Shown here: positions 10,474 to 23,345 of the stretch, piece after piece
Layout of the letters: each line of letters begins with the position of its first letter
Position numbering within the stretch: position 1 is the stretch's first letter
NCBI GenBank assembly: GCA_040005235.1
Contig: JBDTZG010000028.1
Location: forward strand, 6,940-70,939
DNA from: Acidobacteriota bacterium
GTDB taxonomy: Bacteria; Acidobacteriota; Thermoanaerobaculia; Multivoradales; UBA5704
Direction: 5' to 3'
Length of the DNA: 64,000 nucleotides
Made by a program: the position numbers and the translations under genes
Notes under the pieces: generated by a model
The model's input: the letters and a program-made list of their open reading frames with translations, nothing else
Database searches by the model: none
Told to the model about the DNA's origin: nothing

Positions 10474-10558
10474 AGTGGTAGGCCCAACCTATTTGTAATA
10501 GCTTCTCACCCAATTGTCACCGCTTTTTCGTCCGTTTTCCCAAGAGGAGAGATCGGCC

Positions 10559-13369
10559 ATGAAGTTCCTTCGTACCCTCGGCCTCGTCGCGGGGCTCGCT
10601 TGGCTCGGTTCGGCAACCCTGTCGGCCCAAACCACCGGTTCGATCGTCGGCCGGGTGATCGACGAGAGCGGCGCGCCGCTGCCGGGGACCGCGGTCGAAG
10701 CGACCAGTCCGTCGCTCCAAGGAACGCGCTCTGCGACCGCCGACGCCAACGGCGACTACCGCCTGACCCTCCTGCCACCGGGCAGTTACACCGTGACCGC
10801 GAACCTCCAAGGTTTCGCACCCGAATCGCGCCAGGCTGTGGCCGTGGGGCTCGACAAAGGAACGACGATCGATCTGGCGCTCCGGGTGACGGCGTCCGAC
10901 GAGATCACCGTGACCGGCGAAGCGCCGGTGATCGACTCGACCTCGACCACCCTCGGTACCAGCCTCGACATCCGCGCCATCCAGACCCTCCCCACGGCGC
11001 GCAACTATTCGTCGGTGGTGCAGATCACCCCTGGCGCCTCCTCTGACGCTAACCCGGAAAACCAGGGGCAGACGACGATCTCGGTCTACGGCTCTTCCGG
11101 TGCCGAAAACGTCTTCTACATCGACGGCGTGAACACCACAGGGGTCGAATACGGCTTCCAGGGCAAGGAGCTGAACTTCGAGTTCATCGAGGCGATCGAC
11201 GTGAAGACCGGCGGATACCAGGCGGAGTTCGGCCGCGCGACCGGCGGGGTGATCAACGTCGTCACCAAATCGGGCGGCAACGAATTTCATGGCGATCTGT
11301 TCGGCTACCTGGATAACGACTCGCTCCAGTCGAGTCCCGACCCGATCGTCTCGACCGGTGGCACGGTCGAAGGCTTCTCGCGGAAAGACTACGGCATCGG
11401 TCTCGGCGGCTTTTTGAAGAAGGACAAGCTCTGGTTCTTCGCTGCCTACGACAAGGTGAGCAACACGCTCACCAGCGCGCTGCCGGCCGGCCCGCGGTCG
11501 GGCCAGGAGGTCGATTCCGACTCCGATCGAAAGCTCGGCGCGGCGAAGGTCACATACCGCTTGACCGAGAGCCAGTCGCTGATCGGCAGTTTCTTCCAGG
11601 ACCCGCGCGAGGACACCGGCGCGATCAACGATTCGAGCCATGCCCTGAACGGCGATCCCGACACCTACACCGGCCGGATCGAGCTGGGAGGCAAGGACTA
11701 TGCCTTGCGCTACCAGGGCATCGTCGCCTCCGAATGGGTTCTCACGGGGCAGGTCGCGCGGCACGAAGAGAAGAACTCCGTGGGTCCGTCGTCCGCCACC
11801 GGCGACACCGTGCAGTTTCGCGACGTGCAGAACGATTTCTTCCAAACCGGTGGCTTCGGCCTGATCCAGGACAAGAACTTCCAACGCGATCATGCCGGCG
11901 CCACTGCCGCGCGCTTCCTCGGCCGGCACGACCTGAAGCTCGGATTCGAGTACGAAAAGGAAAAGGCCGACGTGATCCGCCGCCAGTCGGGCGGCCAGTT
12001 GGTGGACGTCTTCCAGAATCCGTTGAACCCGAACCGGCCGATCTACCAGCACCACTACTGGACGACGCCGGACGCGACGGTCGCCAACGCACCCCTGGGC
12101 CAGCTCACGGCATCGCCGGAGCACAAGAACACCACCCTCTACTTGCAAGACGGCTGGTCGGTGCGGCCGAACCTGACGGTCAACCTCGGCGTGCGCTGGG
12201 ATCGCCAGCAGATCGTCGACGCCGAAGGCACCCAGCAGATCGACTTGAAGAAGGACTACGCGCCGCGCCTCGGCTTCGTCTGGGACCCGACCGCCGATAA
12301 CAAGAGCAAGGTATTCGGATCGTACGGGCGCTATTACGAGCAATTGCCGATGGACCTGGTGATCCGCTCGTTCTCATTCGAGCGCCAGCCGCGGATCGTC
12401 AACTTTTCGCCCACCGACATCCATCCGGATGCGGTGGCGGAAGGGATCTTGGGGACCGATTCGGCGATCCTCGGCGGATTCACCGAGCCGTCGGATCCGA
12501 ACATCAAGGGCCAGTACCTGACCGAGGTGCTGCTGGGCGGCGAGCGCGAGGTGATGCCCGACGTGGCGGTCGGCGCGAAGCTCATTTACCGCAAGTACGA
12601 CCGGGTGATCGAGGATTTCCTCTGCGCCGATGACGGCACCTACTGCATCGGCAACCCGGGAGAGGGTTTCTTCAAACAGGTGTTCACGCTCGACTATTCG
12701 CGCACCCTGCCGGCGCCGAAGCCGAAGCGGGAGTACAAAGGCGTTCAGCTCGACGTGACCAAGCGCTTCTCGAAGAATTGGCAGGCGCTCGCCTCGTACC
12801 TCTACTCGAAGCTCGACGGCAACTTCGACGGCGAATACGCGCCGTTCACCAACGTCGGCGCTGACCCGAATATCTCGGCCGCCTACGACTACTTCGACTT
12901 CTTCACCAACGGCAGCGACCTCACCCGCATCACCAACAAAGGTCCCCTGTCGAACGAACGACGTCACCAGTTCAAACTGTCGGGCATCTACCTCACCCCC
13001 TGGAATCTCCAGGTCGGCGCCTCGGCCTACTACCGCTCGGGCACTCCCCTCACCCGCTACGGCTACTCCGACGCCTATGGCCGCTACGAGTTCTTCCTCA
13101 CCCCGCGCGGCGGCGAAGGACGAGGCCCGGCGACCTACGAGGCCGATCTCCACTTCGGCTACCCGGTGAAGGCAGGACCCACGACGATCAACCTGCTGCT
13201 CGACGTTTTCAACGCCCTGAACGCCCAAAAGCCGATTCTGCTCGACCAGCGTTGGGGCTTCCAGGAGTCCGACAACACCCTGCCCAACCCGACCAATCCG
13301 GGCTACGGAAAACCGGTGCTGCGCACCGCCCCGACGTCGTTCCGAGTGGGTGTGAGGGTGAGCTTTTAA
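10559..13369 (+). CDS. TonB-dependent outer-membrane receptor with N-terminal carboxypeptidase-regulatory-like (CarbopepD) domain
   Basis: ATG at 10559 follows an aagaggaga RBS. The signal peptide is MKFLRTLGLVAGLAWLGSATLSAQ. The CarbopepD-like region is GSIVGRVIDESGAPLPGTAVEA...DANGDYRL. The plug/barrel region has the YGSSGAENVFYIDGV TonB-box-like segment. The C-terminal residue is aromatic (…RVGVRVSF), as expected for a beta-barrel. Confidence 0.9.
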   Translation: MKFLRTLGLVAGLAWLGSATLSAQTTGSIVGRVIDESGAPLPGTAVEATSPSLQGTRSATADANGDYRLTLLPPGSYTVTANLQGFAPESRQAVAVGLDKGTTIDLALRVTASDEITVTGEAPVIDSTSTTLGTSLDIRAIQTLPTARNYSSVVQITPGASSDANPENQGQTTISVYGSSGAENVFYIDGVNTTGVEYGFQGKELNFEFIEAIDVKTGGYQAEFGRATGGVINVVTKSGGNEFHGDLFGYLDNDSLQSSPDPIVSTGGTVEGFSRKDYGIGLGGFLKKDKLWFFAAYDKVSNTLTSALPAGPRSGQEVDSDSDRKLGAAKVTYRLTESQSLIGSFFQDPREDTGAINDSSHALNGDPDTYTGRIELGGKDYALRYQGIVASEWVLTGQVARHEEKNSVGPSSATGDTVQFRDVQNDFFQTGGFGLIQDKNFQRDHAGATAARFLGRHDLKLGFEYEKEKADVIRRQSGGQLVDVFQNPLNPNRPIYQHHYWTTPDATVANAPLGQLTASPEHKNTTLYLQDGWSVRPNLTVNLGVRWDRQQIVDAEGTQQIDLKKDYAPRLGFVWDPTADNKSKVFGSYGRYYEQLPMDLVIRSFSFERQPRIVNFSPTDIHPDAVAEGILGTDSAILGGFTEPSDPNIKGQYLTEVLLGGEREVMPDVAVGAKLIYRKYDRVIEDFLCADDGTYCIGNPGEGFFKQVFTLDYSRTLPAPKPKREYKGVQLDVTKRFSKNWQALASYLYSKLDGNFDGEYAPFTNVGADPNISAAYDYFDFFTNGSDLTRITNKGPLSNERRHQFKLSGIYLTPWNLQVGASAYYRSGTPLTRYGYSDAYGRYEFFLTPRGGEGRGPATYEADLHFGYPVKAGPTTINLLLDVFNALNAQKPILLDQRWGFQESDNTLPNPTNPGYGKPVLRTAPTSFRVGVRVSF

Positions 13370-13720: not shown

Positions 13721-14224
13721 ATGGATGATGAGGCAGATGGCCCTTTCTCCCGTGCGCCGGAGCTTGAAGATCTCCTGAAGCTTTGCGCCGACCTCAACCG
13801 TGAGGGCGCGCGCTATCTCCTGATTGGTGGCTTCGCCGTCATTCTTCACGGCTTTGTGCGCGCCACGAAGGACATCGATTTTCTCGTTGACGACTCAGTA
13901 GAGAACCTGCAGGCGATCAAGAGGGCCATGGCGTGCCTGCCGGATAATGCCGCGGCGCTTCTGGCGGACGATGAGGTTAGTCGCTACAAAGTCGTTCGAG
14001 TTGCCGATGAGTTTATCGTCGACCTGCTCGGCGCGGCCTGCGGCATCACCTATGCCGAGGCCGAGAAAGCAGGCGTAGAGCAGTTCGAGATCGAGGGAGT
14101 CAAGTTGCCGGTGGCAGGCAAAGGTCTCCTGATTCGCACGAAAGAGACAATCCGCGAGAGCGACGCGCTCGACGTAAGATTTCTCCGCATGAAAATCGCC
14201 GAGGAGGGCGGGCGGGAAGGGTAG
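13721..14224 (+). CDS. Nucleotidyltransferase-fold protein (MNT/AbiEii-like, Pol-beta superfamily)
   Basis: 167 aa with a gaggaag RBS. It has the hG[GS]x(9-13)DhD signature: LLIGGFAVILHGFVRATKDIDFLV. No HEPN or other partner is evident. Confidence 0.55.
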   Translation: MDDEADGPFSRAPELEDLLKLCADLNREGARYLLIGGFAVILHGFVRATKDIDFLVDDSVENLQAIKRAMACLPDNAAALLADDEVSRYKVVRVADEFIVDLLGAACGITYAEAEKAGVEQFEIEGVKLPVAGKGLLIRTKETIRESDALDVRFLRMKIAEEGGREG

Positions 14225-16031: not shown

Positions 16032-17696
16032 CTACAGTCCGATCGGCTTCAATGTGGGTCCCACGATGTGACCGAACTCGCCGGGCTCCTCGTGGCTGAT
16101 GTCGTGGGTGAAGTGAGCGCCGTACCAGACCACGACGTCGGCGTTGTCGATCGCCTCGTGATTGACGAACCCGTCGATCCCCGCCTCGTACGGCGGACCG
16201 ATGGCCACCGAGCCGTCGTCGATCTCGTTGCCACGGTAGCGGACGAACCAGAGATCCCCCTTCGGATAGGGCCAATCGGGAGACTGGGTGGCGATCCCGT
16301 CGTGCGGCCCAGGCTGAATCTCGTAGCCGGTTCCGCTCGCGATGTTCTCGACCCGCCACTTGCGTTGGAAGATCGGTGCCCGCGCCCTCTGGGTCTCGAA
16401 CGGGACGGTCTTCCATTTGCCCGACTGGAACGGCAGCTTGTTGTACTCGCGGACCCGGTTGCCGCCCGCGGTTGCGATGTCGAGATCGAGCCGCCAATAG
16501 CAATGATGGTGATGGACGTTGCAGACGCAGGAAGAGGTGTCGACCGCGGTGAATCCGAACCGCGGGCTAATCGTGCCATCCACGTGCAACCGCCATTCGC
16601 TGACGTAGCGATACCAGCCGGCTTCCATCTCGCTCACCAGGACGACTTCGAGGCCGTCGACGTAGATGCCTACGCCGAGGTAATTGCCGAGATCCACTCC
16701 GGTGTCGAGGATCGTCTTCGCCTTAGAAGGGCAGATGCGAAAGCCGGGGGCCACGTCGTTGCCGGCCGGCGCCTGGATCATGCTCTCCTCGTTCTGCCAA
16801 TCGCGGTAGGGGCCGCAGGCGTCACCATCGTATTTGACGTTCAAGATCGGCACGTGCCCGCGATAGAGCACCCGTTTGCCCTTGTAGTCGACGTAGCGCA
16901 GCTCGATTCCAGAGCCGTTGGTGCCGGACGAGGCGGCCGGCCGGACCGCCAGAAACTTCCAGATCGTGGCCCCGCCGTATTTGACGGTGATCCAGACCTG
17001 GCCGGCAATGTTTTGTGCGGTCGCCTGGGTCGCGTGCGGCAAACCGCAGGTGCCGAACCGGGCGAGCGAGGCGGCGGGGGCCCGCTCGGGGAAACGCACG
17101 ACTTTCTTGGCTCCAAGGTTGACGCCGACGATCTCGTGCTCGCGGTTCGCGCCGCTTCCCGGGCCGAGCAGACCGACCGTGACGCCGCGCTCGCGGCTGC
17201 CGTCCTCGTGCTCGGTGATGTGCAACGGCGGCATCGGGGGATAAGCGCGAAGCTTTTGGTCTTTGAGCCGGGGGCCGATCTCCGGATCGCGCAGCAAGAT
17301 CCTCACCGCCTCGTCGAACTCCGCCGCGCTCGCCCGCGGCTGATCGCCCTTTACGCTCACATCCAGCTTGCGCGGATCGGCTAGGCTCCCGCGGGCGTTG
17401 ATCGTGCGCTCGTGGGTGTAGTCGTACCAGGTGGCGACGAATCGATCGGGGGGCGACGGGCGTGCGCTCTTGCCCGCGGCGTCCGGGTCCTCCCAGCGGA
17501 TCGAGAGCAGCCGGTTGCGCGTTCCGGCGAGCAGCTCGGCGATCTGGCGGCTCGCGATGAGGCGCTCGGCGAGCGCGGCCACCTCTTCAGGGCCCGGACC
17601 GTTGGTGCGGACCTGTACTTCAATCGCTGGGGATCTCACCGAGCGGGCGGCTCGGGCTTTCGGGGAGGACTTCTTCGGGGTTTTGCGTGTTGCCAT
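16032..17696 (-). CDS. Copper amine oxidase-like protein (divergent catalytic domain)
   Basis: 554 aa. There is an HxH...RLDxDIxxxGxN block (NVHHHHCYWRLDLDIATAGGN). There is also a C-terminal W-x-G-x-H-x-x-x-x-x-H-E-E-P block (VVVWYGAHFTHDISHEEPG) that resembles the CuAO third-His/ED-P motif. The position equivalent to the TPQ N-Y-D/E-Y reads WYRY. No signal peptide. Confidence 0.5.
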   Translation of the reverse strand: MATRKTPKKSSPKARAARSVRSPAIEVQVRTNGPGPEEVAALAERLIASRQIAELLAGTRNRLLSIRWEDPDAAGKSARPSPPDRFVATWYDYTHERTINARGSLADPRKLDVSVKGDQPRASAAEFDEAVRILLRDPEIGPRLKDQKLRAYPPMPPLHITEHEDGSRERGVTVGLLGPGSGANREHEIVGVNLGAKKVVRFPERAPAASLARFGTCGLPHATQATAQNIAGQVWITVKYGGATIWKFLAVRPAASSGTNGSGIELRYVDYKGKRVLYRGHVPILNVKYDGDACGPYRDWQNEESMIQAPAGNDVAPGFRICPSKAKTILDTGVDLGNYLGVGIYVDGLEVVLVSEMEAGWYRYVSEWRLHVDGTISPRFGFTAVDTSSCVCNVHHHHCYWRLDLDIATAGGNRVREYNKLPFQSGKWKTVPFETQRARAPIFQRKWRVENIASGTGYEIQPGPHDGIATQSPDWPYPKGDLWFVRYRGNEIDDGSVAIGPPYEAGIDGFVNHEAIDNADVVVWYGAHFTHDISHEEPGEFGHIVGPTLKPIGL

Positions 17697-17872
17697 GGAG
17701 AGTCAGCTCCTTTCGCGCCGAGCACGGCCGGACGGCCGCGCAGTGATGGCGTATGTGATGGGCGAAGAGGGAGAGTGGCGCGTTACAGCCGCGCCGGGTT
17801 GGAGCCCGTCCAACCTCCCGCGAGCGCCCTCGGAATCGAAACCTCCGCGCGCGATGCACGTAGTCTTCGGCT

Positions 17873-20314
17873 ATGCCAAAGACTCGCCTTTTCTACGGGC
17901 AAGACGTCCGTTACGCTTTTCGCCTCCTGGCCAAGAGCCCGCTTTCTTCGCTCCTGACGGTGGTCGTTCTCGCCGGGGGATTGAGCGTGAGCATCTTCAC
18001 TTTCTCCTTTCTCTATACGGCGATGCTCAAGCCGCTGCCGGTTCGGGAAGGGGAGGGCATCGTCAAGCTCCTCTCGGTGACGAACGGATCTTGGGGGGCG
18101 ATCGACGCCGCGGATCTTGCCGCCGTTCGGCGTCGACTGACAAGCCTCACGGACCTCGGCGCCTATTCCTCTCGGGAGTTGGTGGTCGGCACGGGAGAAG
18201 GGACTCGCGCGATCCAAGCAACCGAGACCGAGTGGAACATCTTCGAGGTGACCCGGACCTTGCCGGCGCTCGGGCGCGGCTTTCGGCGGGAGGATCAAGT
18301 GGCGGGAGCCGAGCCGACGGTGGTGTTGAGCGACGGGGTCTTCCGGAGCGTCTTCGGCGGCGACCGCGATCTCATCGACCGCCATGTCGTCCTCTCCGGC
18401 GTTTCGACCCGCTTGATCGGGGTAATGCCGCCCGGCTACGGCTTTCCCGTGGCCTCGGAAGCCTGGGTGCCGATTCGGCCCGAAATCCTCTCTGCTACCG
18501 TTCCCAATCAGCAGGCGGTCGAGGCCTACGCCCGGTTGGCGCCGGGATCGAGCCGTCGACGGGCGGCGGCCGAGCTTTCGGCGCTCTTGCTGGGGGTGCG
18601 GCGCGCGCGTCCCGCGGAGGCTACCGCGGAGGAGCGGGCCGAGCCGACCGGGATGCGGGTGGAGACCTTTCCGATCGCCCAGATCGGCGAGGTGGCTCCC
18701 CTCCTGCTCGCCGTTCTCAATACCCTCGCGACTCTGATCCTGCTACTCGCCTGCGTCAACGTCACGAATCTTCTCCTGGCGCGCGCCAACGAGCGGGCTC
18801 GCGAGACCGCCGTCCGGCTCGCCCTCGGCGCGCCCCGGCCGCGACTGATCATGCAGTGCCTTTGGGAAATCGTCCTCCTCTGTGTCGCGGGCGGATCGCT
18901 GGCGACGGGTATCGCTGCGGCGGCTCTGGGGACCCTCAACGATTGGGCTCATGCCCACCTGGCGGGAAACCTGGCGTTCTGGTGGGTCTGGGGCTTCGAC
19001 CGTACCCTCGGGTTCGCGGCCGGTGCCTTCGTCACCTTGGCGGTCGCGGTTTTGGGCGGAGTGGTCGCGGTGCGGGCTACCCGCACGGAGGTCAACTCCA
19101 TTCTTCAGGAGGGTGGTGCGCGGAGCGGCGACCGGCGCGAGGGCCGCATGGCCCGTGCCCTGGTGGTGACTCAGGTGGCGACGGTTTCGGTGTTGATGTT
19201 CGTCGGCTGCATGTCGGGCGTCATCGCCTGGCGGGTCGTCCACGTGGACTTAGGTTTCGACACCCGCAACCTCCTTGAATCCTCGGTCGAGCTTCCGGCG
19301 GAGCGGTATCCGGACGCGCCCGCCCGGGGCCGGTTCTACCAAACGCTCTACGAGCAGCTCGTTGCGCGGCCGGAGCTGCTCGGGGTGGTTTTGCGTGAAC
19401 CGCTCGCCTCGATCTCCGGCGAGGAGGGCGAGTTCGAGCTGAGGGAGCCGGGCGCCGCCTCGGCTCGTGCGCGGACTTTCGTCCAGGCGGTGCTCGGGCC
19501 GCTCACTCCGCTCGGTATCGATCTCCGCGCGGGCCGATTCTTTGACAGCCGAGACCGCGAATCCTCCGAACCGACGGTTTTGGTGAGCCGGGCCTTCGCC
19601 TCGCGGACCTGGCCGAACCAGTCGCCGATCGGACGCCAGATCCGGCTCGTGGGCCTTGAAGAAAAGCGATGGCGGACGGTGGTCGGCGTAGTGGACGACG
19701 CAATGTTGGGCAACCCGCTCTCCCGCGATCGGAGCACGATCGCGGCCTACCTCCCGCTGCGGCAAACCGGGGCGGAAGAGGCAATGGTCCTATTTCGCCA
19801 CCGCGGCAGCCGCCCCGCGGGCCAGTCGGCGTTCCACCAGACGCTCGCCGGACTTGATCCGCTGCTCACTCCGGCCGGCGTCCAGAGCTTCGAAGAGGTC
19901 TTGGCCAAGACTACGATGATCGCCCGATCGGTGGCCGGGCTGTTCGGAATTTGCTTCGGCTTCGCGCTCCTGCTAGCGGCGAGCGGCACTTTCGGGCTGA
20001 TGGCCCGCTCGATCGGCCGGCGCACGCGCGAAATCGGCGTCCGGCGCGCCCTGGGCGCTTCGGAGCGAAACATCCTCCGAATGCTCTTGGGTCAGGGCGG
20101 CCGGCAGCTGGGCATAGGCGCGCTCTTCGCGTTGCCGCTCACCGTGCTCGCGGGGTTCGGGTTCTCGCATTTCTTTCCTGTCTCGTTCGGTCTGTCGGTC
20201 GGTGTCGCACTCCTGGTCGCCGCCTCGGTCGGTGCGATGGTGCTCGCCGCGACCTGGGTGCCAGGTCGCCAGGCGGTCGCGGTCGAGCCGCGAGACGCCC
20301 TCTGGCGGGAGTGA
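17873..20314 (+). CDS. MacB/FtsX-type ABC transporter permease, ADOP family (acidobacterial duplicated orphan permease)
   Basis: 813 aa. It has two FtsX 4-TM modules, each preceded by a large periplasmic MacB-like domain. The N-terminal segment is typical of ADOP (MPKTRLFYGQDVRYAFRLLAKSPLSSLLTVVVLAGGLSVSIF). Confidence 0.9.
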   Translation: MPKTRLFYGQDVRYAFRLLAKSPLSSLLTVVVLAGGLSVSIFTFSFLYTAMLKPLPVREGEGIVKLLSVTNGSWGAIDAADLAAVRRRLTSLTDLGAYSSRELVVGTGEGTRAIQATETEWNIFEVTRTLPALGRGFRREDQVAGAEPTVVLSDGVFRSVFGGDRDLIDRHVVLSGVSTRLIGVMPPGYGFPVASEAWVPIRPEILSATVPNQQAVEAYARLAPGSSRRRAAAELSALLLGVRRARPAEATAEERAEPTGMRVETFPIAQIGEVAPLLLAVLNTLATLILLLACVNVTNLLLARANERARETAVRLALGAPRPRLIMQCLWEIVLLCVAGGSLATGIAAAALGTLNDWAHAHLAGNLAFWWVWGFDRTLGFAAGAFVTLAVAVLGGVVAVRATRTEVNSILQEGGARSGDRREGRMARALVVTQVATVSVLMFVGCMSGVIAWRVVHVDLGFDTRNLLESSVELPAERYPDAPARGRFYQTLYEQLVARPELLGVVLREPLASISGEEGEFELREPGAASARARTFVQAVLGPLTPLGIDLRAGRFFDSRDRESSEPTVLVSRAFASRTWPNQSPIGRQIRLVGLEEKRWRTVVGVVDDAMLGNPLSRDRSTIAAYLPLRQTGAEEAMVLFRHRGSRPAGQSAFHQTLAGLDPLLTPAGVQSFEEVLAKTTMIARSVAGLFGICFGFALLLAASGTFGLMARSIGRRTREIGVRRALGASERNILRMLLGQGGRQLGIGALFALPLTVLAGFGFSHFFPVSFGLSVGVALLVAASVGAMVLAATWVPGRQAVAVEPRDALWRE

Positions 20315-23214: not shown

Positions 23215-23345
23215 GGCTCCTGGTTTAATTCTTGAAGGGCGAATTTCAAGGGCCGAAGGCCCATCCAATAATAGCCTAGGGCAACGCCCTAGGTTCCCGG
23301 TTCGCGCCCACCCCAAAAGGGCTGAAGGCCCGCACCATCCACCCT
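23215..23345. repeat. REP-like palindromic hairpins (3 units) on the 3' side of the RAYT gene
   Basis: The hairpins are gggccgaaggccc (~23250-23262), cctagggcaacgccctagg (~23275-23293) and gggctgaaggccc (~23329-23341). They have GC-rich stems and are each followed by ...catcc. Confidence 0.7.

Follow-up and report, generated by a model that had tools for sequence, protein, structure and literature searches.

The 64-kb stretch of DNA analysed here (the window) encodes a real yet very divergent relative of the copper amine oxidases (CuAOs), a 554-aa protein in which the tyrosine at the topaquinone (TPQ)-precursor position lies within a W-Y-R-Y motif. The protein belongs to a deeply divergent clade of the CuAO superfamily, and we consider it fairly probable that it is a self-processing oxidase carrying copper and a Tyr-derived quinone, acting as a stand-alone, probably cytoplasmic enzyme. 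The features of the gene are:

16032..17696, minus strand: coding sequence of a divergent copper-amine-oxidase-superfamily protein (W-Y-R-Y clade), 554 aa (PF01179, hhalign, Foldseek)
17707..17713, minus strand: Shine-Dalgarno-like AAAGGAG, 9 nt 5' of the ATG (sequence read directly)
17007..17600, minus strand: N-terminal region, residues 33-230, corresponding to the CuAO D2 + D3 domains (hhalign to ECAO precursor ~127-350)
16035..17006, minus strand: D4-like catalytic domain, a beta-sandwich formed by residues 231-554, with ~80 residues fewer than its E. coli TynA counterpart (PF01179, hhalign, Foldseek)
16785..16832, minus strand: active-site loop Y289...R298-D299-W300...E304, with Y289 equivalent to ECAO Tyr369 (alignments and conservation)
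16605..16616, minus strand: W361-Y362-R363-Y364, with Y362 at the TPQ-precursor position (aligned to ECAO N465-TPQ466-D467-Y468)
16521..16529, minus strand: C390-V-C392, putative partners of C294 and C217 (correlated loss)
16503..16514, minus strand: H395-H396-H397-H398, with H395 and H397 at the Cu-ligand positions ECAO H524/H526 (HMMER, hhalign, MAFFT mapping)
16104..16115, minus strand: H528-F-T-H531 (HFTH), with H531 at the position of the third Cu ligand, ECAO H689 (HMMER, hhalign, MAFFT mapping)

A CuAO-like fold had been proposed in an earlier note on this DNA, and all motif strings quoted there are present on the translation of the open reading frame. Pfam PF01179 matched the protein at 37.3 bits against a gathering score of 27 (E 2e-9), over model positions 203-381 of 407 only, and no other Pfam family was found even at E<=10; LOX-type enzymes, which the note had suggested for a phylogeny, are thus not related. 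A PDB search with the single sequence was nearly blind (ECAO at E ~0.2, with spurious His-tag matches to NorA constructs scoring higher), and a family profile was therefore used. Because hhalign against the TynA sequence alone aligned only residues 358-538, an alignment of canonical CuAOs was built from TynA and nine plasmid-borne CuAOs obtained by tblastn (n=10). The family profile aligned with these canonical CuAOs at a probability of 99.4% (E 8.5e-22) over residues 33-544, nearly the full length, and at 98.9% in a further run, and its search of the PDB returned CuAOs only. In Foldseek with the AlphaFold model, the top 50 PDB matches were all CuAOs (best E 7e-18), and the alignments extend over ~650 columns. 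The protein has the D2-D3-D4 fold; the Pfam N2/N3 domain models were unmatched in its N-terminal region. Identity to canonical CuAOs is 12-16% by structure-based and ~20% by profile alignment, and a score of 21.1 bits against a cutoff of 651 places the protein outside the NCBIfam primary-amine oxidase equivalence NF008559.

Within this fold, the positions of the canonical copper and cofactor sites are retained. Three independent alignments (HMMER, hhalign and MAFFT) equated H395, H397 and H531 with the ECAO copper ligands H524, H526 and H689, as had been supposed from the motifs, Y362 with TPQ466, and Y289 with the conserved active-site tyrosine whose hydrogen bond reaches TPQ O4 (ECAO Y369, HPAO Y305). 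Both grounds on which the note would have given up the CuAO assignment, a lacking or poorer CuAO match and misaligned Cu histidines, were thus checked, and the assignment withstood them. Conservation, counted in 56 diverse clade representatives at 30-58% identity, is high at all of them: H397 and Y362 are each found in 55/56, as is Y364, Y289 in 53/56, and H395 and H531 in 48/56 each. The blocks are closer together than in E. coli TynA, as previously remarked, with 33 residues instead of 58 from the Tyr to the first His and 134 instead of 163 from HxH to the third His. The His4 run that had drawn attention is indeed present at residues 395-398 and is not a product of chance, since the composition of the protein predicts 0.0005 occurrences, but the conserved pattern is H-x-H-H, position 396 being His in 18/56. 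Similarly, the resemblance of the third-His region to an E-E-P motif holds in the close subclade but not beyond it.

The surroundings of Y362 depart from the canonical site. WYRY stands, as first read, in place of N-Y-[DE]-Y: W361 replaces the consensus Asn and R363 the consensus Asp/Glu, each in 56/56, whereas the canonical set has N (10/10) and D/E (10/10) at these flanks, and the T-x-x-N-Y-D/E consensus is replaced by E358-A-G-W361-Y362-R363. A review (PMC3382800) calls the N-Y-D/E consensus, like the Asp base, a strictly conserved feature of CuAOs. Two further histidines are family-specific, namely H398 (51/56), which has no canonical counterpart, and H528 (47/56), which is aligned to a Gly (G716) invariant in canonical CuAOs. 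Moreover, H395 and H531 are jointly replaced by Arg/Gln in 7/56 relatives that retain Y362, W361, R363, E304, H397, H398 and H528, and therefore part of the conserved set, at least, serves a role for which the canonical Cu site is dispensable. All of this would suit an oxidase with copper or another metal on a CuAO scaffold that carries no canonical TPQ or catalyses something other than amine oxidation, an alternative that we regard as unlikely. Y362 could then be a tyrosyl/tyrosinate ligand or another modified residue stacked on W361, and E304, R298, D299, W300, R363, H398 and H528 would make up a novel active site with novel chemistry; the absence of the canonical Asp base and the radical-copper-oxidase-like and tyrosinase genes that are occasional neighbours of the clade point in the same direction. 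However, the three His, the precursor Tyr and the Tyr369/Tyr305 equivalent, which are all the known needs of TPQ biogenesis, are kept in most members, consensus-site mutants of HPAO still make TPQ (PMC3382800), and no positive evidence speaks for an alternative cofactor.

The base region is also remodelled. The column of the catalytic Asp (ECAO D383) holds no Asp in the window protein and corresponds, depending on the alignment, to a gap beside E303, to Q308 or to the non-conserved E303. Counted from the conserved Tyr, the invariant E304 is at +15 and the canonical Asp at +14. The loop that carries E304 (residues 286-305) was modelled at pLDDT <50, and E304 and R298 are each found in 56/56 representatives. 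E304 is the candidate catalytic base. In ECAO, Glu was the only replacement of the base Asp that left activity, with kcat down 6.4e4-fold (PMC3382800). In divergent members C294 is lost together with C390, and C217 together with C392, a pattern that makes disulfides C294-C390 and C217-C392 probable.

In the reaction expected of a copper/quinone oxidase with these residues, one Cu(II) would be held by H395, H397 and H531, and copper and O2 would bring about the self-processing of Y362 to a topaquinone-type cofactor, positioned by Y289. The quinone would then oxidise a primary amine to an aldehyde, NH3 and H2O2, and E304, on a loop tethered by the C294-C390 disulfide, would serve as the base in place of the canonical Asp. 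W361/R363 in place of Asn/Asp, together with the remodelled base loop, points to a changed positioning of the cofactor and to a substrate unlike those of TynA/AGAO-type enzymes. We favour this reading because the active-site set aligns identically by all three methods and is strongly conserved, and because HPAO with mutated flanking residues still forms TPQ and a Glu base in ECAO keeps activity. It is weakened by the unmatched T-x-x-N-Y-D/E consensus, the Asp column without Asp, the low pLDDT of the base loop, the loss of H395 and H531 in the minority described above, and H398/H528, for which it gives no explanation. The yeast HPAO-1 mutants N404A/D and E406Q, in which TPQ is formed at reduced yield or rate (PMC3382800), are the nearest experimental analogue of the natural W-Y-R site, but they carry single small/polar substitutions and no Trp/Arg, whereas in the clade both flanks have changed together and been fixed by selection.

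The earlier note had left the choice between a divergent quinone-cofactor oxidase lineage and a non-catalytic homologue. The former is supported by the fold and the conserved Cu His and Tyr positions. A non-catalytic homologue, which would be a structural or binding protein, could explain why neither the consensus nor the catalytic Asp is conserved, why the NCBIfam primary-amine-oxidase score is only 21 against 651 bits and why Cu ligands have been lost in some clade members. We find it improbable, since the whole active-site set is near-invariant: the full His triad, Y362 and Y289 are kept in the window protein and in 48/56 representatives, and the presence of E304, R298, R363 and W361 in every representative at such low identities indicates strong purifying selection, not decay.

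The clade comprises 430 representatives at E<=1e-30 and extends over 10 or more bacterial phyla as well as archaea of the Nitrososphaerales; it is common in soil Acidobacteriota, Actinomycetota, Proteobacteria and Nitrososphaerales. Relatives carry the JGI label 'Copper amine oxidase, enzyme domain'. This label, along with the CuAO fold and the shared Cu and Tyr positions, would agree with an ordinary TynA/AGAO-type orthologue that looks odd through high G+C and phylogenetic distance. Such an explanation is very improbable given the low identity to canonical CuAOs, the NF008559 score and the single-sequence PDB result reported above; furthermore, W-Y-R-Y and E304 remain unchanged through many phyla of differing G+C, the cultured members mentioned below included, and are thus clade-defining features and not drift. 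No characterised clade member was found in the literature on topaquinone/phylogeny, SSN, Acidobacteria, WYRY and glyoxal oxidase clusters, and a 2025 CuAO 'tree of life' paper makes 3 passing mentions of bacteria, with the W-Y-R-Y clade not among them.

The annotated start of the gene, and with it the absence of a signal peptide, is supported by the AAAGGAG that precedes the ATG by 9 nt; no hydrophobic N-terminal segment was found in its 554 residues. The absence of a signal peptide had been noted before as unusual, and that part does not stand, as it is not anomalous for bacterial CuAOs generally: a Paenibacillus CuAO open reading frame opens directly at the D2 domain. Within the clade it is the minority state, hydrophobic N-termini being found in 33/56 representatives, and most members appear to be secreted, while the subclade of the window protein appears not to be.

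At the locus, the gene is, as the note had stated, transcribed divergently from an ADOP-type permease (MacB_PCD+FtsX x2); the permease begins at 17873, 176 nt away, and a promoter/terminator consensus scan was uninformative. Neither a paralogue nor a galactose-oxidase (GO)-like gene was found elsewhere in the 64-kb window. Synteny with the window neighbours (the ADOP permease, DinB_2 and a PLP enzyme) is limited to the two closest Thermoanaerobaculia relatives, and a search for conserved operons by all-vs-all clustering of the open reading frames of 81 loci found no specific conserved neighbour, the recurrent clusters being generic ABC-ATPases and sensor kinases only. The lack of a conserved neighbour is expected for a self-processing enzyme. 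In three unrelated loci a glyoxal/galactose-oxidase-like gene adjoins a clade member, an adjacency compatible with a route from amine to aldehyde to acid. Tyrosinase genes also occasionally adjoin clade members. Graspetide group 41 biosynthetic gene clusters co-occur with PF01179 proteins (PMC13097080); such a link was rejected for the W-Y-R-Y clade, as the published precursor had no tblastn match in the family loci or the window.

Comparison with E. coli TynA/ECAO and A. globiformis AGAO (PF01179, EC 1.4.3.21) shows a common D2-D3-D4 architecture and D4 beta-sandwich, the three Cu His, the TPQ-precursor Tyr and the Tyr after it, the Tyr369/Tyr284 equivalent, an R-L-D-x-D motif after HxH and a D-x-V-V-W motif before the third His, in stand-alone genes that need no maturation partner. 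The window protein, at ~15-20% identity, differs in having W-Y-R for N-Y-D/E, an invariant Glu one residue past the base column, the shorter D4 (by ~80 residues relative to TynA/ECAO) with large deletions on either side of the cofactor strand, the extra conserved H398/H528, four co-varying Cys and no D1 domain. Canonical CuAOs are homodimers held together by two D4 beta-hairpin arms (PMC3382800). Lysyl oxidase (LTQ) and LodA/GoxA (CTQ) likewise oxidise amines with the help of copper or a quinone, their cofactors are protein-derived, and many are secreted, like most clade members. Their folds are unrelated to that of the window protein, for which PF01179 is the sole Pfam family and the structural matches are CuAOs throughout. 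Near clade members, neither a maturation flavoprotein nor a partner gene is conserved. Galactose/glyoxal oxidase (AA5) pairs its copper with a modified, redox-active Tyr on which a Trp stacks, a likeness that is an analogy only; its Kelch beta-propeller fold differs from that of the clade. An obligatory Cys-Tyr cross-link is argued against because the clade cysteines behave as disulfide pairs and can disappear without the loss of Y362.

Current ideas of how TPQ arises and takes part in catalysis owe much to the N-Y-D/E consensus and the Asp base, and hundreds of natural clusters with fixed Trp/Arg flanks and with Glu close to where the base sits amount to a natural experiment on the need for this consensus. 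We consider it rather unlikely that the clade forms a new class among the oxidases with protein-derived cofactors, in which the Trp/Arg pair, the Glu base on its disulfide-tethered loop and H398/H528 would give a cofactor or reaction unlike TPQ primary-amine oxidation; examples would be some other Tyr-derived species, an additional metal site, or amine substrates that are polymeric or bear a carboxylate. Such a class, if real, would have a wide distribution among soil bacteria and ammonia-oxidising archaea. Cultured Variovorax, Streptomyces, Modestobacter and Occallatibacter are among the hosts, which makes the clade open to experiment, and its abundance in soil suggests a route, so far unrecognised, by which ammonia, aldehydes or H2O2 may be released from amines.

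The ORF call placed the gene resembling copper amine oxidases (CuAOs) exactly where the earlier note had put it, and translation recovered every motif quoted there, numbered here along the 554-aa product (window protein):

16032-17696, minus strand: CuAO-like ORF, 554 aa, ATG start
residues 361-364: WYRY
residues 390-392: CVC
residues 395-398: HHHH
residues 528-531: HFTH

The start codon is supported by a Shine-Dalgarno-like AAAGGAG read 9 nt 5' of the ATG. The window protein is a relative of CuAOs. Its match to Pfam PF01179 (37.3 bits, gathering score 27) is confined to the C-terminal half of the domain, the NCBIfam primary-amine oxidase model gives 21 bits, far under its cutoff of 651, and a PDB search with the single sequence is nearly blind (E. 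coli TynA, ECAO, at E 0.2). A profile of 30 family sequences retrieved only CuAOs from the PDB (E 7e-6), and profile-profile comparison with a canonical alignment of ECAO and nine diverse bacterial and archaeal CuAOs encoded on plasmids reached 98.9% (E 1.7e-17) for the close family and 99.4% (E 8.5e-22, residues 33-544) for 56 diverse relatives. Foldseek with an AlphaFold2 model (pLDDT 75, pTM 0.79) returned CuAOs as all of its best 50 PDB matches, namely the Arthrobacter (AGAO), E. coli and yeast (HPAO) enzymes (E 7e-18 to 2e-15, TM ~0.5, 12-16% identity, alignments of ~650 columns), so the fold proposed earlier is borne out. Since the profile alignment is nearly full-length and the structural alignments are this long, the architecture is D2-D3-D4; unlike TynA, the protein has no D1, and its D4 has roughly 80 residues fewer. 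The compressed spacing between motif blocks was also described correctly: the cofactor-position Tyr lies 33 residues from the first His (58 in ECAO), and HxH lies 134 residues from the third His (163 in ECAO).

Residues were mapped to ECAO (mature numbering) by a HMMER profile, hhalign and MAFFT L-INS-i, in which 56 family members and 10 canonical CuAOs were aligned together. All three methods equate Y362 with the quinone cofactor residue TPQ466, W361 with N465, R363 with D467, Y364 with Y468 and Y289 with Y369. The three putative copper ligands also align with those of known CuAOs, H395, H397 and H531 corresponding to H524, H526 and H689. D404/D406 and D520 fall on D533/D535 and D678, the ligands of the peripheral Ca2+ site in ECAO. 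Of the canonical elements, only the catalytic base Asp383 lacks a clean match: its column is a gap beside E303 or stands opposite Q308 in two hhalign comparisons, and opposite E303 in MAFFT L-INS-i. That column varies across the 56 representatives (E 23, Q 15, S 9, A 5), whereas E304, directly after it, is invariant and stands 15 residues past the conserved Y289, against 14 for the canonical Asp; its loop is modelled with pLDDT <50.

Relatives retrieved by a word-indexed search number at least 1,850, and the best 120 are all ~550 aa with 57-91% identity; the best match is a 'hypothetical protein' of a Thermoanaerobaculia MAG. When 1.84 billion 50%-identity representatives were scanned exhaustively with HMMER, 430 matched at E<=1e-30, 1,003 at <=1e-10 and 1,579 at <=1e-3. 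Scanning one genome per species yielded 108 genomic copies, in Acidobacteriota, Gemmatimonadota, Nitrospirota, Actinomycetota, Alpha-, Beta- and Gammaproteobacteria, Myxococcota, Verrucomicrobiota, Armatimonadota, Chloroflexota, Methylomirabilota, Bdellovibrionota and Nitrososphaerales archaea; among the hosts in culture are Variovorax, Streptomyces, Modestobacter marinus, Occallatibacter savannae and a Myxococcaceae strain. Among the 56 representatives (30-58% identity to the window protein), W361, R363, E304, R298, R402, D494 and Y525 are invariant, Y362, Y364, H397 and Y400 are kept in 55, Y289, D299 and W300 in 53-54, and H395, H531, H398 and H528 in 47-51. The four-His run noticed earlier is real (0.0005 occurrences expected from composition), but H396 is His in only 18 of 56, and the conserved pattern is therefore H-x-H-H. 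In the few members lacking these cysteines, C294 disappears with C390 and C217 with C392, which suggests two disulfides, one of which would link the E304 loop to the HxH-bearing strand.

With fold, homology, residue equivalences and their conservation established for the window protein, Cu(II) would be bound by H395, H397 and H531, autocatalytic oxidation, assisted by Y289, would turn Y362 into a TPQ-type quinone, and the quinone would oxidise a primary amine with E304 as proton-abstracting base. HPAO N404A still forms 5-10% TPQ, N404D and E406Q slow biogenesis two-fold and about ten-fold, and in ECAO Glu is the sole active substitution of the base, with kcat down 6.4e4-fold (PMC3382800). Because these mutants keep some TPQ formation or activity, a W-Y-R site paired with a Glu base is chemically conceivable, although the remodelled loop would have to reposition the carboxylate. 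Two findings count against a simple TPQ reading. The H398/H528 pair has no counterpart in canonical CuAOs, which carry an invariant Gly in place of H528, and seven of the 56 relatives jointly exchange H395 and H531 for Arg/Gln while retaining Y362, W361, R363, E304, H397, H398 and H528. A subclade with such an exchange (P0192, P0195, P0205, P0236 and P0267), which has Arg, Gln or Phe at the two positions and retains W-Y-R-Y, E304, H397, H398 and H528, has either lost copper or uses another site. In view of both findings, we hold a Cu/Tyr-quinone amine oxidase to be the somewhat favoured prediction, and another cofactor or chemistry on the CuAO scaffold to be unlikely. A pseudo-enzyme and an ordinary TynA-type orthologue are each very improbable.

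The surroundings of the gene in the window are as follows:

10514-13369, plus strand: CarboxypepD_reg/Plug/TonB-dependent-receptor-like outer-membrane protein
13721-14224, plus strand: 167-aa ORF between this receptor and the PLP enzyme, zero Pfam matches at E<=1e-4
downstream of the CuAO-like ORF: a convergent DinB_2 protein and a PLP-dependent enzyme
17873-20314, plus strand: duplicated MacB_PCD/FtsX (ADOP-type) permease, divergent from the CuAO-like ORF, as the earlier note had it
23249-23293, minus strand: Rfam Acido-Lenti-1 sRNA motif, 39.6 bits (gathering score 37), in a low-GC stretch at 22-24 kb (GC 0.57, ~0.67 elsewhere) with short ORFs only; the motif agrees with the window coming from an Acidobacteriota genome

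The receptor and permease genes are both syntenic in an 80%-identical Thermoanaerobaculia contig (L001), synteny with the window neighbours is limited to the two closest Thermoanaerobaculia relatives, and no functional link of the oxidase to either gene was found. Clustering all ORFs of 81 loci revealed no specific conserved neighbour, which fits a self-sufficient enzyme. A galactose/glyoxal-oxidase-like (GO-like) gene (Kelch and GO-like_E_set) directly adjoins a member of the clade at three unrelated loci:

L002, 6128-7972: metagenome contig
L027, 3051-4853: Variovorax sp. WDL1
L056, 4763-6779: Gaiellaceae MAG

A tyrosinase gene lies upstream in the locus of P0065, and these adjacencies may represent copper-oxidase pairing. 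The GO-like association is weak, though it would suit a pathway from amine through aldehyde to acid, analogous to tynA-feaB of E. coli; no GO-like gene or comparable partner was found within the 64-kb window.

The window protein begins MATRKTPKKSSPKARAARSVRSPAIEV... without a hydrophobic segment, and so lacks a signal peptide, as had been remarked. This lack is not unusual among canonical bacterial CuAOs; a Paenibacillus ORF, for example, starts straight with the D2 HPLEPL motif. A strongly hydrophobic, signal-peptide-type N-terminus occurs in 33 of the 56 representatives and a Tat-like one in two more, and long members, reaching 1,343 aa, bear fused P-domain, Big_12, fn3, DUF11 or MAM modules or a T9SS Por_Secre_tail, which point to cell-surface or secreted forms. 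These modules are C-terminal in P0235, P0257, P0263, P0254, P0248, P0229 and P0185. On these grounds, export is the ancestral or predominant state of the clade. The window protein's subclade carries a Lys/Arg/Ser-rich tail of 15-45 residues without a hydrophobic segment (17610-17696, minus strand, and the N-termini of its own family alignment), which may serve in targeting or polyanion binding. Comparable basic tails occur in the GO-like protein of L002 (6128-6230) and in a 606-aa protein upstream in locus L005 (3816-3990).

Membership of the clade in the CuAO superfamily is already known, since PF01179 captures its proteins and some carry the JGI annotation 'Copper amine oxidase, enzyme domain'. 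Our literature search found no description of the clade, its W-Y-R-Y signature or a characterised member; graspetide group 41, associated with PF01179 proteins, was rejected, as the family loci are not involved. The CuAO fold is unsurprising, and the point of interest is the departure from the active-site consensus. That consensus has been described as strictly conserved (PMC3382800). As an exception to it, the clade is large, cleanly defined and accessible to experiment.
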